Origin: an uncultured Thermoplasmata archaeon
Lineage (GTDB): Archaea; Thermoplasmatota; Thermoplasmata; RBG-16-68-12
Length of the DNA: 64,000 nt
Assembly (NCBI GenBank): GCA_963768855.1
Contig: CAVYJM010000006.1
Span: 512,001-576,000 of the forward strand
Direction of reading: 5' to 3'
A program made the position numbers and the translations under genes. Position 1 is the first letter of the stretch; each line of letters opens with the position of its first letter. Below the pieces are notes generated by a model. It was not told the DNA's origin. It saw only the letters and a list, made by a program, of their open reading frames with translations, and ran no database searches. Positions 58,215 to 64,000 of this stretch are shown piece by piece.

Positions 58215-58270
58215 GCCCCCGTTCCCTGCCGGTGCCGTCGGACGCATACCTCACCCCGGAGGAGGCCTGA
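58211..58270 (+). other. 19-codon micro-ORF bridging sufD and sufU
   Basis: MSPRSLPVPSDAYLTPEEA; ATGA overlap with the sufD stop and TGATG overlap with the sufU start. Confidence 0.45.
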
Positions 58271-58722
58271 TGCCGGACCTGCGAGAGCTCTACCAGGAAG
58301 TGATCCTGGACCACACGAAGAACCCGCGGAACTTCCACGCGCTCGCGGAGGCGACCGCGAAGGCGGTGGGCAACAACCCCCTCTGCGGGGACCGCGTGAC
58401 CGTCTACCTGAAGATGGAGGGAGACCGGATCGTCGATGCGAGCTTCGAGGGCCAAGGCTGCGCGATCTCCAAGTCGTCCGCCTCCCTGATGACCGAAGCG
58501 GTCAAGGGCCACACGAGGCCCGAGGCGGAGGCTCTGTATGACAAGTTCCACGAGATGATCACGGGCAAGCCGGAAGGCTCGGTCGGCCCCGAGGCGCTCG
58601 GCAAGCTCGCCGTGTTCCAGGGCGTGAGCGAGTTTCCCCTCCGGGTCAAGTGCGCGAGCCTCGCGTGGCACACGCTCCGGTCCGCGCTCGAATCGAAGGA
58701 GGGCGTCGTCACCCTCGAATGA
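58270..58722 (+). CDS. sufU: SufU (long type, with insertion)
   Basis: YQEVILDH, NPLCGD, GCAISKSSAS and RVKCA motifs. Confidence 0.93.
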   Translation: MPDLRELYQEVILDHTKNPRNFHALAEATAKAVGNNPLCGDRVTVYLKMEGDRIVDASFEGQGCAISKSSASLMTEAVKGHTRPEAEALYDKFHEMITGKPEGSVGPEALGKLAVFQGVSEFPLRVKCASLAWHTLRSALESKEGVVTLE

Positions 58723-58774: not shown

Positions 58775-60025
58775 ATGGCGCATGCCGCAAAGGTCCTCCT
58801 GAACGTCCCGGACATCAAGAAGGACTTCCCGATCCTCCATCGCAAGATGCGGGACAAGCCCCTCACGTACCTCGACAGCACGGCGACCTCGCAGAAGCCG
58901 CAGCAGGTCATCGACGCCGTCGTCGACTTCTACTCGCGGTACAACGCGAACGTCCACCGGGCGATCTACGAGCTCGGCGAGGAGGCCACGCGCGCATACG
59001 AGGGCGCTCGGGAGCGGATCGCGGAGTTCATCGGTGCGAAGGACCCCATGGAGATCGCCTTCACGAAATCCACGACGGAGTCCCTCAACCTCGTCGCGTA
59101 CGGCTACGGGCTGAAGAGCGGGCGCCTCAAGGAAGGCGACGAGATCCTGGGCACGGTCCTCGAGCACCACTCCAACCACGTGCCCTGGCACTTCGTCCGG
59201 GACCTGAAGGGCGTCGCGCTGAAGTACGTCGACGTGGACGACGAAGGCCATCTCCGCATGGAGCAGTACGACGACCTGATCACGAAGCGCACGAAGATCG
59301 TCACGGTCGCGCACGTGTCGAACGTCTTGGGCACGATCAGCGACGTGAAGGAGATCGCGAGGCGCGCGCACGAAGTCGGTGCCGTGTGCGTCGTCGATGC
59401 GGCGCAGAGCGTGCCCCACATGCCGGTCGACGTCCGCGCGCTCGACTGCGACTTCTTCGCCTTCAGCGGGCACAAGATGCTCGGGCCCACCGGCATCGGC
59501 ATCCTCTACGGCAAGAAGGAGATGCTCGAGGTCACCGAGCCTCTCCTCGGCGGTGGGGAGATGATCAGCGAGGTCCACCTGGGGTCCGCGAAATGGAACG
59601 ACGTGCCCTACAAGTTCGAGGGCGGCACGCCGAACATCGCCGGCGCGATCGGCCTCGGGGCCGCGGTCGACTACCTCGCGAAGCTCGGCATGCCCGCCGT
59701 GCGGCAGCACGAGATGGAGCTGACGGCGTACGCGCTCAAGGAGCTCGCGGCCGTCGAGGGCCTGCGGACCTACGGGCCGAAGTCCGTCGCGGAGCGGGGC
59801 GGCGTCGTCTCCTTCACGATGGAGAAGGCCCACCCGCACGACATCGCGTCCATCCTTGACGTCGAGGGCGTCTGCATCCGCTCGGGGCACCACTGCGCCC
59901 AGCCCCTCATGGACCGCTACGATCTCGCCGCGACCGCCCGGGCTTCCTTTTACGTATACAACGACGTCGAGGACGTGGACCGCCTCGTGGTGGCCCTCCA
60001 GAAGGTCAATGAGGTGTTCGGCTAG
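58775..60025 (+). CDS. sufS: Class II cysteine desulfurase
   Basis: YLDSTATSQKP, FSGHKMLGPTGIG and RSGHHCAQP motifs. Confidence 0.96.
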   Translation: MAHAAKVLLNVPDIKKDFPILHRKMRDKPLTYLDSTATSQKPQQVIDAVVDFYSRYNANVHRAIYELGEEATRAYEGARERIAEFIGAKDPMEIAFTKSTTESLNLVAYGYGLKSGRLKEGDEILGTVLEHHSNHVPWHFVRDLKGVALKYVDVDDEGHLRMEQYDDLITKRTKIVTVAHVSNVLGTISDVKEIARRAHEVGAVCVVDAAQSVPHMPVDVRALDCDFFAFSGHKMLGPTGIGILYGKKEMLEVTEPLLGGGEMISEVHLGSAKWNDVPYKFEGGTPNIAGAIGLGAAVDYLAKLGMPAVRQHEMELTAYALKELAAVEGLRTYGPKSVAERGGVVSFTMEKAHPHDIASILDVEGVCIRSGHHCAQPLMDRYDLAATARASFYVYNDVEDVDRLVVALQKVNEVFG

Positions 60026-60421
60026 ATGGCACCCGGCCCGGGGCCGTACCAGGCCCAGATCCTCGACCACTACAAGCACCCGCACAACCGCGGCGTGCTG
60101 GAGTCCGCGACCCACACGTCCCGCGAAGCGAACCCCCTGTGCGGGGACGAGATCGTCCTCGCGCTCCGCGTCGACGGGACGGGCCGGATCGAGGACGCCC
60201 GCTTCGAGGGCGAGGGCTGCGCGATTAGCATGGCGAGCGCCTCCCTGCTGACGGACGCACTCAAGGGGAAGACGCTCGAGGAGGCGCGGGCCCTGGACCG
60301 GCCCACGGTGCTCGGCTCCCTGGGCGTCCCCCTGAGCGCGGTGCGGGAGCAATGCGCCCTGCTGCCCCTGCGAGCCTTGCAGGCCGCCCTGGCCCCGCCC
60401 GTGCCGGCGCAAGGGCATTAA
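60026..60421 (+). CDS. Second U-type protein (short IscU/NifU-like)
   Basis: ILDHYKHP, NPLCGD, GCAISMASAS and REQCALL motifs; no long insertion. Confidence 0.9.
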   Translation: MAPGPGPYQAQILDHYKHPHNRGVLESATHTSREANPLCGDEIVLALRVDGTGRIEDARFEGEGCAISMASASLLTDALKGKTLEEARALDRPTVLGSLGVPLSAVREQCALLPLRALQAALAPPVPAQGH

Positions 60422-60449: not shown

Positions 60450-61379
60450 ATGGCTCCGACCCGATCCGAACCGAAGGCGTCGAACGTGTGCGACCTGATC
60501 GGCCGCACGCCCCTCCTGCGCTTGGACCGGATCTGGCAGGACGTCATCCCCGGCGTCGAGCTCTACGCGAAGGCGGAGTGGGACAACCCGGGCGGGAGCG
60601 TGAAGGACCGCGCCGTGCTCTACATGCTCCGGGACGCGGAGAAGCGCGGCCTCACCCCGAAGTGGACCCTCCTCGACGCCACGTCGGGGAACACGGGGAT
60701 CGCGCTGGCGATGCTGGGAGCTGCTGAGGGCTTCCACGTCACCCTGTGCGTCCCCAAGAACCTCAGCACGGAGCGCCGACGAATCCTGCGTGCGTTCGGG
60801 GCCGATCTCGTGTTCACCCCGGCCACGGAGGGCACGGACGGCGCACAGCGCGTCGCCCGGTCCATGGCGGACTCCGCCCCGGACCGGTACTGGTACTTCG
60901 ACCAGTACAACAACGAGGCGAACTGGCGCGCGCACTTCGAGACGACCGGTCCGGAGATCTACGAGCAGACGGGGGGACGCATCACACACTTTGTCGCCTG
61001 CCTCGGCACGACCGGAACGTTCGTCGGCGCGGGCAAGTTCCTGCGGAGCAAGCTCCCGTCCATCCAGCTCGTGGCCGTGCAGCCGGACAGCCCGTTCCAC
61101 GGCATCGAGGGCGTGAAGCACCTCGAGACCGCGAAGGTCCCGGGGATCTGGGAGGCGGGGCTCCCGGACCAGACGATGACCGTGGCCACGGAGGATGCCC
61201 AGGCCGCGGCTCGCCGGATCGCGCGGGAGGAGGGCTACCTCGTTGGCACCTCGAGCGGCGCCGCCCTGGACGCTGGGCTGCGGCTCGCGGAGCGGATCCG
61301 GGACGGGGTCGTCGTGATGGTCTTCCCCGATGCGGGCGACAAGTACCTCGGGGACCGTTACTGGGAGGAGGCGATCTGA
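60450..61379 (+). CDS. cysM: PLP-dependent cysteine synthase, CysM type
   Basis: KAEWDNPGGSVKDR, ATSGNTG, GTTGT, GIEGVKHL and GTSSGA motifs. Confidence 0.92.
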   Translation: MAPTRSEPKASNVCDLIGRTPLLRLDRIWQDVIPGVELYAKAEWDNPGGSVKDRAVLYMLRDAEKRGLTPKWTLLDATSGNTGIALAMLGAAEGFHVTLCVPKNLSTERRRILRAFGADLVFTPATEGTDGAQRVARSMADSAPDRYWYFDQYNNEANWRAHFETTGPEIYEQTGGRITHFVACLGTTGTFVGAGKFLRSKLPSIQLVAVQPDSPFHGIEGVKHLETAKVPGIWEAGLPDQTMTVATEDAQAAARRIAREEGYLVGTSSGAALDAGLRLAERIRDGVVVMVFPDAGDKYLGDRYWEEAI

Positions 61380-61795
61380 TCGTCACGCTCACCCGCGCGC
61401 ACATCGAGGCGATTGGGGCTCACGCCCGCGAGACGTATCCGGAGGAGTGCTGCGGCTTCCTCCTGGGACCTCCGACGGAGCCGAGGACGGTGGCCTCGTT
61501 GCGGCGCGCCACGAACGTGGCCGAGACGAACCGGGCACGGCGGTACGTGATCGACCCGCGCGAGACCCTCGCGGTCGAGAAGGACCTGTCCGGAACCGGC
61601 GCGGAGATCCTCGGCTTCTACCACAGCCACCCAGACCATCCTGCGGAGCCCTCCGAGTTCGACCGCTCGCACGCGTGGCCATGGTATTCGTACGTCATCC
61701 TGAGCATCGTCGAGCGGGAGCCTGCGGACCTGCGCGCGTGGACGCTGGACGGGGACACGTCGACCTTTCGGTCCGAGTCCCTCTCCATCCCGTGA
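61376..61795 (+). CDS. JAMM/MPN+ metallopeptidase (Mec-like)
   Basis: PEECCGFLLG and GFYHSHPDHPAEPSEFD (E...HxH...S..D). No ATG/GTG/TTG start found; CTG proposed. Confidence 0.92.
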   Translation: MIVTLTRAHIEAIGAHARETYPEECCGFLLGPPTEPRTVASLRRATNVAETNRARRYVIDPRETLAVEKDLSGTGAEILGFYHSHPDHPAEPSEFDRSHAWPWYSYVILSIVEREPADLRAWTLDGDTSTFRSESLSIP

Positions 61796-61798
61796 GGT

Positions 61799-62422
61799 TC
61801 ATGCGGGCGGGTCGGGAACCGCGGCGGGCGCTTGCGGCTCGGTCCTCGACATGAGGAATCCGCCGAAGGCGATTTCCCACAGGAGGACTGGATAGGCGAT
61901 CATTCGCTCCATGCCGCCGAAACCGATGCCCGCATACTGTCCTGCGACGAAGAGGACGAGGGCCACGAGGCCGACGAGGCCAAGCACCGCGGAGATGTAG
62001 CGGATCGGCGGCGGGGTCCGAAGGGAGATCAGGATCGCTACGAGGCCGCCGAAGAAGAACGAAACGAAGGCGAAGACCGCGTGGGGCGCGCCCGTGGTCT
62101 CCGGGAAGAGGCCGACCCCGATGGGCCCGATCCCCGCCAGGGCGAAGGGGAGCGTGATCCAGAGCCTCTTGTGCGTGCGGTGGTAGAGGTAGGCGGCCGC
62201 CAACGTGAGGATTCCGAGAAGCGCCACGGAGACGTTGAAGAGGAGGGCGGTCGAGTCGACGCCAAGGTCGCTGATCGCGTTCGTCGAGATGCTGTAGTTC
62301 GGGCGCATGCCCTCGGCGACGAGCATCGCGAGGACGAACTGCAACGATCCGAGGAAGAAGAGGAAGCCCGCGAGTGTCCGGTCGTCGGTACGCATGCCGC
62401 CGCCCATCCATCCGTCGGCCAT
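61799..62422 (-). CDS. DUF998-family membrane protein
   Basis: YSISTNAISDLG, GVGLFPE, H..FA and GGMER...YP motifs; multiple TM segments. Confidence 0.8.
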   Translation of the reverse strand: MADGWMGGGMRTDDRTLAGFLFFLGSLQFVLAMLVAEGMRPNYSISTNAISDLGVDSTALLFNVSVALLGILTLAAAYLYHRTHKRLWITLPFALAGIGPIGVGLFPETTGAPHAVFAFVSFFFGGLVAILISLRTPPPIRYISAVLGLVGLVALVLFVAGQYAGIGFGGMERMIAYPVLLWEIAFGGFLMSRTEPQAPAAVPDPPA

Positions 62423-62574
62423 AATCGTTTTCCCCGAATGGGATGAGAACCCCGGTAACCCGGGGGCCTATTCCGATGGGCGCTAGCCGTTGCGTGAATC
62501 CCCTTATAGATGTCGTCCCTCCCGTAGGGCGGCGGCGGAAGACCTAAGTAGAACAGCGGTGTGAGAGAGATTCC

Positions 62575-64000
62575 ATGGGCGCGAAGATCAAGGTCCTCAT
62601 CCCCACGCCGCTCCGTGCGTACGCGGCGAACCAGGACACGATCGAGCTCCAGGCCGAGGACGTCCGGGAGGCGCTCGGCACGCTCGTCGGCAAGTACGAA
62701 GCGCTGCGCCGCCACCTCTACACGGACGAAGGCCATCTCCGCAACTTCGTCAACGTCTACCTGAACGAGGAGGACATCCGCTACCTGCAACGGGAGGCCA
62801 CCCCGCTCAAGGACGGCGACACGATCTCGATCGTCCCGAGCATCGCAGGCGGGTCGAACTCCGTTCTGGAGTCCGTCGCATCGCGGCGCAAGGACATCCT
62901 GACCCCCGCGGAGATCAAGCGCTACTCGCGCCACCTCATCCTTCCAGACGTCGGGATGGCGGGGCAGCTCAGGCTCAAACAGTCCTCGGCGCTCGTCGTC
63001 GGCGCAGGCGGCCTCGGCAACCCCTTGCTGCAGTACCTCGGCGCTGCCGGCGTCGGGCGGATTGGGATCGTTGACTTCGACACGATTGACGTCACGAATC
63101 TGCAGCGCCAGGTGATGTACGGCACGAAGGACATCGGGCGGAAGAAGCTCGAGGTCGCGAAGGAGCGCGTGCAGGCGATCAACCCGAACGTGGACGTGCA
63201 GACGTACGAGGAGCGGCTCACCTCGGAGAACGTGCTCGGGATCCTGAAGGACTACGACGTCGTGATCGACGGGACGGACAACTTCCCGACTCGCTACCTG
63301 GTGAACGACGCGTCCGTCCTCCTGGGCAAGCCGAACGTCTACGGCTCCATCTTCCGGTTCGAGGGCCAGGCCAGCGTCTTCTGGGCCTCGAAGGGCCCGT
63401 GCTACCGCTGCCTCTATGCTGAACCGCCACCGCCGGGGCTCGTGCCTTCCTGTGCGGAAGGCGGCGTCCTCGGCGTCCTGCCGGGCATCATCGGTTCAAT
63501 CCAGGCGGTCGAGGCGATCAAGGTCCTCCTGGGCAAGGGCGACACCCTGGTCGGGCGGCTCCTCGTCTTCGACGCGCTGAAGATGAAGTTCCGGGAGCTC
63601 AAGCTCCGCAAGAACCCGGACTGCCCGATCTGCGGGACCCACCCGACGATCAAGGAGCTGATCGACTACGAGGAGTTCTGCGGCCTGAATGCCCCGAGCG
63701 AGCAGGTGAGCGAGGAGTTCCAGATCACGCCCGAAGAGCTCAAGGCGAAGCTGGACGACGGCGGGAACGTCGTCCTGCTCGACGTCCGCGAGCCGCTCGA
63801 GTGGGAGATCAGCCGCCTCGACGGCGCGATCCTCATGCCCGTCGGCCAGGTGCCCGGGCGCGTGAGCGAGCTCAGCACCGCGGACGAGATCGTCGTGTAC
63901 TGCAAGAGCGGCATGCGCTCCGCGCGGATCACGAACTTCCTCCGGGAACTGGGCTTCCGCAAGGTGAAGAACCTCGCGGGCGGGATCGACGAGTGGGCCG
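62575..64000 (+). CDS. Ubiquitin-like sulfur carrier (CysO/MoaD) :: E1-like adenylyltransferase :: rhodanese fusion (MoeZ-like), truncated by window end
   Basis: Manual translation: UBL ending SIAGG at aa 93 (62853), then RYSRH, GAGGLG, CYRC, PSCAEGG, CPIC, and rhodanese DVRE...YCKSGMRS. Not in the ORF track (no stop). Confidence 0.93.
   Translation, partial: MGAKIKVLIPTPLRAYAANQDTIELQAEDVREALGTLVGKYEALRRHLYTDEGHLRNFVNVYLNEEDIRYLQREATPLKDGDTISIVPSIAGGSNSVLESVASRRKDILTPAEIKRYSRHLILPDVGMAGQLRLKQSSALVVGAGGLGNPLLQYLGAAGVGRIGIVDFDTIDVTNLQRQVMYGTKDIGRKKLEVAKERVQAINPNVDVQTYEERLTSENVLGILKDYDVVIDGTDNFPTRYLVNDASVLLGKPNVYGSIFRFEGQASVFWASKGPCYRCLYAEPPPPGLVPSCAEGGVLGVLPGIIGSIQAVEAIKVLLGKGDTLVGRLLVFDALKMKFRELKLRKNPDCPICGTHPTIKELIDYEEFCGLNAPSEQVSEEFQITPEELKAKLDDGGNVVLLDVREPLEWEISRLDGAILMPVGQVPGRVSELSTADEIVVYCKSGMRSARITNFLRELGFRKVKNLAGGIDEWA

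Follow-up and report, generated by a model that had tools for sequence, protein, structure and literature searches.

We analyzed a 64,000-nucleotide stretch of DNA (G000:C6:512001-576000, here referred to as “the window”) from the 2.87-Mb draft metagenome-assembled genome of an uncultured Thermoplasmata archaeon, estimated to be 93.6% complete with 7.7% contamination. Near the end of the window, genes for a CysM-like cysteine synthase and a JAMM zinc peptidase of the JAB family precede a gene whose product joins a CysO-like, ubiquitin-like sulfur carrier, an E1 enzyme, and a rhodanese in a single chain. The order on the plus strand is sufB, sufC, sufD, sufU, sufS, a second and shorter sufU (sufU'), cysM, the JAMM gene, and then the fusion gene (Table 1). 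An initial annotation, made from the sequence alone, had listed cysM, the JAMM gene, and the fusion as following directly upon the suf genes. Its open reading frames and domains were confirmed, but the peptidase and fusion genes are not direct neighbors, as a gene for a DUF998 membrane protein lies between them on the minus strand. The same annotation took the host to be an archaeon, and this was right: a small-subunit rRNA gene that lies a further 7 kb downstream has its best fit to the archaeal model, at 1493.6 bits, and the closest named homologs are labeled “Thermoplasmata archaeon.”

In relatives of 80 to 92% identity (L006, L007, and the contigs of P0060 and P0005), sufBCD, sufU, sufS, sufU', cysM, the JAB gene, and the fusion gene form an unbroken row on a single strand, with intergenic gaps of 12 to 186 nucleotides between the JAB and fusion genes. 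The DUF998 gene, which splits the operon in the window genome, is missing from that place in these relatives and is no part of the carrier system. The layout is real and conserved; it is a common, predicted form of a known cysteine pathway and not a new system.

A sulfur carrier fused to its E1 and rhodanese

In full, the fusion protein comprises 485 amino acids (L001:1501-2958); its gene runs 32 nucleotides past the window, which places the last 10 residues outside. The Gly-Gly of the carrier is internal, at residues 92 and 93 of 485, and not C-terminal as in free CysO. A free carrier would therefore need proteolysis, and no free carrier gene is found inside the cysM-JAB cluster of the window. 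The best solved relatives of the carrier domain are CysO proteins (4n6e_B, E value of 7.5e-14; Mycobacterium tuberculosis CysO 3dwg_C, E value of 2.4e-13), with which it aligns end to end, their C-terminal Gly-Gly matching G92-G93. The domains are those given in the initial annotation, which had described a ubiquitin-like domain with Gly-Gly at these two residues, fused to an intact E1 and rhodanese.

We scored residue conservation across 29 fused proteins. G92 and G93 never vary, even where identity is as low as 40%; also invariant are the E1 GxGxxG motif (residues 143 to 148) and C293 and the rhodanese active-site residues C443 and R448, and the E1 CxxC pairs at 276/279 and 350/353 are conserved in at least 90% of the proteins. 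The segment after the Gly-Gly is 3 to about 25 residues long, and no part of its sequence is conserved; conservation returns at the RYSRH motif of the E1. With its Gly-Gly fixed and its linker variable, the carrier-E1 junction looks like a processing site. In the AlphaFold2 model of the fusion, there are three confident domains (mean predicted local distance difference test [pLDDT] of 87.8; predicted template modeling [pTM] score of 0.71), and residues 91 to 106 alone fall below a pLDDT of 50; the modeled linker is disordered. The E1 matches the fold of MoeB (1jw9_B, template modeling score of 0.95 by target), and the best structural match of the E1-rhodanese part is Uba4 (6yub_A, E value of 1.2e-37). 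By NCBIfam models, the E1 scores above the cutoff for PRK08762 MoeB (465.6 versus 449) and the PRK05690 subfamily (299.6 versus 266) and below it for PRK07411 MoeB (509.8 versus 633) and PRK07878 MoeZ (506 versus 647).

A search over 5.8 billion proteins from NCBI, ENA, JGI, and Logan assemblies, clustered at 90% identity, found the ThiS, ThiF, and Rhodanese Pfam domains together in one protein in at least 120 clusters of 76 to 92% identity to the fusion. The initial annotation had allowed that reads might reveal a stop codon after the Gly-Gly; the fused frame is unbroken in these clusters, which come from independent assemblies.

To place the fusion among its orthologs, we surveyed 70 loci with a carrier beside an E1, of which 20 came from a sample of 301 genomes across the phylum and the others from genomes of named species. 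Carrier and E1 are fused in 37 of these loci and split in 33. Five split carriers stop exactly at the Gly-Gly, and the others are tailed, mostly by 1 to 6 residues (V, C, D, AA, IA, NKPGR, and others). The E1-rhodanese tree requires at least 16 switches between the fused and split states, and several fused and split proteins are sister pairs. Given that orthologs are split at the Gly-Gly or after a short tail, and that the state has switched repeatedly, a free carrier ending in Gly-Gly appears to be the common functional form. From these comparisons, we regard the fusion as the long extreme of a range of C-terminal extensions that would need removal.

Two loci have unusual junctions. At L037:8367-8789 (genome G191), the carrier extends about 50 residues past the Gly-Gly, includes a second SIAGG motif, and ends ahead of a separate E1 gene; this carrier is an intermediate between the short-tailed and fused forms. 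On the minus strand at L030:9130-9240 (genome G108, family f16), an in-frame TGA follows the GGA at which the carrier ends. The reading frame then runs on into the E1, and neither ATG nor GTG nor TTG occurs ahead of the conserved HYSRH motif of the E1. This TGA could be a recent nonsense change, a stop that is read through, a site of re-initiation, or a sequencing error.

A predicted route to cysteine and its alternatives

We interpret the locus, with a probability of about 0.65, as a protein-thiocarboxylate cysteine route of the type known from M. tuberculosis CysO/CysM/Mec+/MoeZR (PMC3227635), with the carrier here made as the N-terminal part of its own E1-rhodanese enzyme. The JAMM zinc peptidase would cut the G93-S94 bond to yield a 93-residue carrier with a C-terminal Gly-Gly. 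Judging from the intact motifs and the chemistry of the family, the E1 would then adenylate the terminal glycine, and a persulfide on Cys443 of the rhodanese would turn the carrier into its thiocarboxylate. CysM would join this thiocarboxylate to aminoacrylate derived from O-phosphoserine; no serine acetyltransferase (CysE) scores above the cutoff in the 93.6%-complete genome, which favors, but does not prove, O-phosphoserine as the substrate. After an S-to-N acyl shift, the same JAMM enzyme would, by analogy with Mec+, hydrolyze the adduct of carrier and cysteine, which would set the cysteine free and return the carrier to the cycle. A JAMM cut after the Gly-Gly, thiocarboxylation by the former fusion partner, and use by CysM had all been put forward in the initial annotation, and they are consistent with all of the comparative and modeling evidence. 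The retained place of the cluster after the SUF genes suggests, speculatively, that its cysteine would supply SufS in the assembly of iron-sulfur clusters, by way of a form of sulfur that is less sensitive to oxidation than free sulfide.

The peptidase of the cluster has the complete E...HxH...S..D motif of JAMM/MPN+ hydrolases; residues E24, H83, S84, H85, S93, and D96 are intact and are invariant among 14 orthologs. PfJAMM1 (5lda) is a relative by sequence (E value of 2e-14). We modeled the JAMM protein together with carrier residues 1 to 116 and zinc in three runs, alongside three controls. The JAMM-carrier ipSAE was 0.89 in all three runs and 0.00 in the best of the controls; among solved complexes, 58 out of 80 reached this mark, as did 2 out of 110 mismatched pairs. 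At least 90% of the contacts are common to the runs, with a partner pLDDT of at least 82. In the model, carrier residues 87 to 97 reach the JAMM active site, where G92 and G93 contact JAMM residues 56 to 59, 83, 93, 95, and 96 at the zinc site, and linker residues 94 to 97 lie within the interface.

Across the survey, 50 of the 65 loci with a tailed or fused carrier have a JAB gene no more than 4 kb away, as against none of the 5 in which the carrier ends exactly at the Gly-Gly; by state, the counts are 29 of 37 fused and 21 of 33 split loci. JAB also tracks CysM, being found within this distance in 45 of the 46 loci with CysM versus 5 of the 24 without, and so close an association fits the role of Mec+, the release of cysteine from the carrier. 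The commonest arrangement is cysM-JAB-carrier, which occurs in archaea and in several bacterial phyla. In P0186 (Pseudomonas sp.; 619 amino acids), the JAB, carrier (Ubl), E1, and rhodanese domains occupy a single chain, possibly a fully self-processing polyprotein.

Several points weigh against the proposed route. All of its support is comparative or modeled. The opposite-strand DUF998 gene separates the JAMM gene from the fusion in the window, and the JAMM gene has no canonical start: it has CTG at 61376 (window positions 61373-61381, within ATCTGATC), whereas L006 and L047 have a GTG that overlaps the cysM stop codon. The next in-frame GTG would give a protein of 101 amino acids without the catalytic Glu24, and the JAB of a 92%-identical relative is annotated as a truncated gene of this length. 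The CTG is possibly a noncanonical start, a site of re-initiation after the cysM stop codon, or the mark of a crippled gene. The association between JAB and carrier tails falls short of significance in an independent-pairs test that accounts for kinship (no more than 4 such pairs; median p of 0.5), and JAB genes are present in 10 of 10 tested genomes, fused or split, so that presence or absence does not discriminate. The solved PfJAMM1-SAMP2 complex (5lda) resembles the modeled one; the pass of the complex model may reflect memory of 5lda and is to be read as likeness to PfJAMM1-SAMP2, not as proof of binding. As to the synthase, CysM scores below the NCBIfam cutoffs (TIGR01138 cysM, 347.6 versus 394.2; cysKM subfamily, 316 versus 344) and is nearer to Escherichia coli CysM 2bht (1.1e-73) than to M. 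tuberculosis CysM 3dwg_A (3.8e-51), and its use of a protein thiocarboxylate is predicted from gene linkage. By these scores, it is a clear relative of the cysteine synthases of the PALP family and not an equivalog under NCBI rules. Finally, were SufS the sulfur donor of the rhodanese, the flow would be circular, from cysteine back to cysteine.

Some of these points bear on which enzyme makes the cut. It is possible, though unlikely, that the carrier is released and used as proposed but cut by a second JAB, another protease, or self-processing, the neighboring JAMM acting only as a Mec+-type hydrolase of the carrier-cysteine adduct or being inactive here. The case for this consists of the CTG in place of GTG and the 101-residue call in the relative, a second JAB gene in the genome at C10:157039-157344, the closer tie of JAB adjacency to CysM than to the fused state, eight fused loci with no JAB within 4 kb, and the precedent of the fusion protein MoaX, for which the cutting protease is unidentified (PMC4326299). 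However, the 37 N-terminal codons of the JAMM gene are open and retain the family motif YPEECCGFLLG, and in the complex model the G93-S94 bond and the adjoining linker sit in the JAMM active site. Moreover, JAB does occur fused to Ubl, E1, and rhodanese, and the JAMM enzymes QbsD and HcyD trim the tails of sulfur carriers.

A second alternative, which we find rather improbable, is that the fused carrier serves an acceptor other than cysteine synthesis (molybdopterin, tRNA thiolation, homocysteine, or another thio-metabolite) and that CysM is an ordinary sulfide- or thiosulfate-dependent synthase that is merely co-regulated. In its favor, CysM is closest to the E. coli enzyme, a carrier-E1-rhodanese occurs with no CysM nearby in 24 of the 70 loci, and the E1 retains two CxxC motifs, a mark of MoeB/MoeBR (PMC3227635). 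Against this stand the predominance of the cysM-JAB-carrier layout across archaea and several bacterial phyla, the CysO identity of the closest solved relatives of the carrier, and the presence in the genome of other genes to cover the other tasks, namely, a second E1 beside a ThiI-like gene and four free ThiS/MoaD genes. This second E1, which lacks a rhodanese domain, is probably a general-purpose E1 that serves tRNA thiolation as well as the free ThiS/MoaD proteins. There is one CysM paralog in the genome, at 43% identity.

Moonlighting of the carrier in sampylation, which the initial annotation had also raised, finds no support. The parts of the fusion locus score below the NCBIfam cutoffs for SAMP1 (50.5 versus 60), UbaA (344.4 versus 450), and desampylase (104.8 versus 130), and we set this reading aside; the separate E1, the second JAB, and the free ThiS/MoaD genes of the genome could serve such a function.

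It is very unlikely that the N-terminal beta-grasp domain is never removed and instead serves the E1 permanently for docking or regulation, with free ThiS/MoaD proteins encoded elsewhere as the true carriers. Ubl-ThiF fusions that co-occur with a separate ThiS are known, and a different role was suggested for the fused domain (Iyer et al. 2006, PMC1779556); the window genome, too, has its four free ThiS-family genes. Yet the Gly-Gly is invariant precisely at the end of the domain and is followed by a variable, disordered linker, orthologs are split at the Gly-Gly or just beyond it and have switched state repeatedly, and the cysM-JAB cluster has no other carrier gene. An assembly or sequencing artifact, such as a lost stop codon or a frameshift in this contaminated metagenome-assembled draft, is effectively refuted because the identical three-domain frame recurs in independent assemblies from four sources, in at least 120 clusters, and in dozens of named genomes.

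Beyond the proposed route itself, the fusion may be a control device, although we hold this to be a doubtful extension. Carrier and E1 would be made at a ratio of 1:1 and would remain inert until release by JAMM, with the protease gating an oxidation-resistant supply of cysteine that is co-transcribed with, and feeds, SUF; once released, the carrier might in addition be attached to proteins through the action of its own E1. The at least 16 switches of state and the JAB::Ubl::E1::rhodanese protein would then point to selection on gating.

Neighboring genes and distribution

The coordinates of the cluster, of its neighbors, and of the second E1 of the genome are given in Table 1. In the window, sufS is flanked by two different SufU/IscU-like genes (58270-58722 and 60026-60421), and the shorter of these (PF01592) keeps its position before cysM in relatives. 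In 12 loci, which represent both archaeal clades, Acidobacteriota, Chloroflexota, and Ruminococcus, SufS is encoded no more than 4 kb from the carrier cluster. Behind the DUF998 gene, the fusion gene has an upstream region of its own, of 152 nucleotides, with a TATA-like CTTATAGA at about 62503-62510.

Table 1. Features of the carrier locus in window coordinates, with the second E1 of the genome in contig coordinates (PLP, pyridoxal phosphate; SHMT, serine hydroxymethyltransferase)
Feature	Position	Strand	Evidence or context
sufS cysteine desulfurase	58775..60025	+	TIGR01979, 593 bits (cutoff, 475)
Second, short SufU/IscU-like gene, directly before cysM	60026..60421	+	TIGR01994, 106.8 bits, residues 8-90
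CysM-like PLP cysteine synthase, 309 amino acids	60450..61379	+	PF00291, E value 1.9e-65
JAMM/MPN+ zinc peptidase, about 139 amino acids	61376..61795	+	Prok-JAB, E value 2e-27; frame overlaps cysM stop
DUF998 membrane protein	61799..62422	-	PF06197, E value 9.9e-20
Fusion: CysO-like beta-grasp carrier domain, residues 1-93, ending SIAGG	62575..62853	+	PF02597, E value 3.5e-12, residues 7-93
Fusion: linker, residues 94-116; predicted scissile bond G93-S94	62854..62922	+	
Fusion: E1 (MoeB/ThiF) adenylation domain, residues 117-372	62923..63690	+	PF00899, E value 1.9e-84; ThiF match 117-351
Fusion: rhodanese domain, residues 385-475	63727..64000	+	PF00581, E value 9.4e-22
Second E1 without rhodanese, 344 amino acids	G000:C6:329249-329980 (L002)		Between SHMT-like gene and ThiI-like PP-loop gene

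Fused relatives of 50 to 66% identity are common in Acidobacteriota, Gemmatimonadota, Chloroflexota, Elusimicrobiota, and Bacillota, and the remark in the initial annotation that similar fusions exist in some bacteria was correct but understated. Soil bacteria of the first three of these phyla often have the layout. In a quick, unrooted tree, the E1 of the window falls in a well-supported clade (Shimodaira-Hasegawa approximate likelihood ratio test [SH-aLRT] value of 95) of 18 sequences that are all archaeal, 17 from Thermoplasmatota and 1 from Nitrososphaerota. The genes of family f3, which belong to the class-mates of the window genome, make up another archaeal group, placed close to Gemmatimonadota with weaker support. 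This unrooted tree makes transfer between the two domains likely. The bacterial origin for which a phylogeny had been proposed as a check is plausible, but the tree does not fix the direction, and the window gene itself sits in the all-archaeal clade. It clusters there with genomes of other classes of the phylum, apart from the f3 genes of its own class-mates, and this split suggests transfer or paralogy within the phylum.

If the proposed route is correct, cysteine synthesis on a ubiquitin-like carrier would be no actinobacterial oddity but widespread in soil bacteria and Thermoplasmata archaea, and a common form of it could start only after a deubiquitinase-like cut in a carrier-E1 polyprotein. 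Prokaryotes would then have a simple counterpart to the way ubiquitin precursors are processed. That the linkage to SUF genes recurs hints that this cysteine supply would be adapted to oxidative conditions.

Relation to known systems

A bacterial operon with an unfused set of ThiS/MoaD, JAB, E1-rhodanese, and cysteine synthase genes was described by Iyer, Burroughs and Aravind in 2006 (PMC1779556, Table 1, row 4c). It shares with the window the gene set and the predicted link between a sulfur carrier and cysteine synthesis; however, the carrier of row 4c is a separate gene, and the Ubl-ThiF fusions of that study sit in thiamine-type operons with free ThiS. A 2010 paper noted Ubl-E1 fusions in Thaumarchaeota (PMC2948915). 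What is shown here of the fused form, of how often it occurs, and of its repeated fusion and fission is computational. In a full-text literature search, to which most subscription journals were out of reach, we found no published test of whether a carrier-E1 fusion is cleaved.

Processing of a fused sulfur carrier has a precedent in MoaX, the MoaD-MoaE fusion of M. tuberculosis, in which a cut after the Gly-Gly (Gly82/Ser83) is required for activity (PMC4326299). Both MoaX and the window protein are sulfur carrier fusions with a Gly-Ser junction, but the partner in MoaX is a sulfur-accepting synthase subunit and not an E1, and no JAMM is encoded beside it.

Shorter extensions are removed by the JAMM enzymes of the QbsD/QbsE pair (thioquinolobactin) and the HcyD/HcyS pair (homocysteine synthesis in Wolinella), which take off the residues after the carrier Gly-Gly before the E1 acts, and the trimming of sulfur-carrier tails by JAMM enzymes is established chemistry. 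Many of the split orthologs of our survey have such tails, of 1 to 6 residues; the “tail” in the window is a 392-residue enzyme.

The archaeal SAMP/UbaA/HvJAMM1 and PfJAMM1-SAMP2 systems (PMC4443979; 5lda) likewise combine a beta-grasp protein, an E1, and a JAMM enzyme, but the window parts fall short of the NCBIfam cutoffs for SAMP1, UbaA, and desampylase. Uba4/MOCS3, the eukaryotic E1 with a rhodanese, has in common with the window protein the chemistry of adenylation followed by persulfide transfer; unlike the fused carrier, Urm1 is a separate protein, and its pathway serves tRNA thiolation and urmylation.

The nearest counterpart is the M. tuberculosis system of CysO (Rv1335), CysM (Rv1336), Mec+ (Rv1334), and MoeZR, with which the window shares a carrier ending its domain in Gly-Gly, an E1 with a C-terminal rhodanese, a PLP-dependent cysteine synthase, and a JAMM hydrolase. 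The window differs in that the carrier is fused ahead of the E1, so that cleavage would be needed before the first turnover, and in that its E1 lies inside the cluster, whereas that of M. tuberculosis is encoded elsewhere in the genome. The window CysM is nearer to that of E. coli, and the window E1 keeps the two CxxC motifs, as MoeBR does. Finally, the host belongs to the archaea, and its cluster follows on from a SUF operon.

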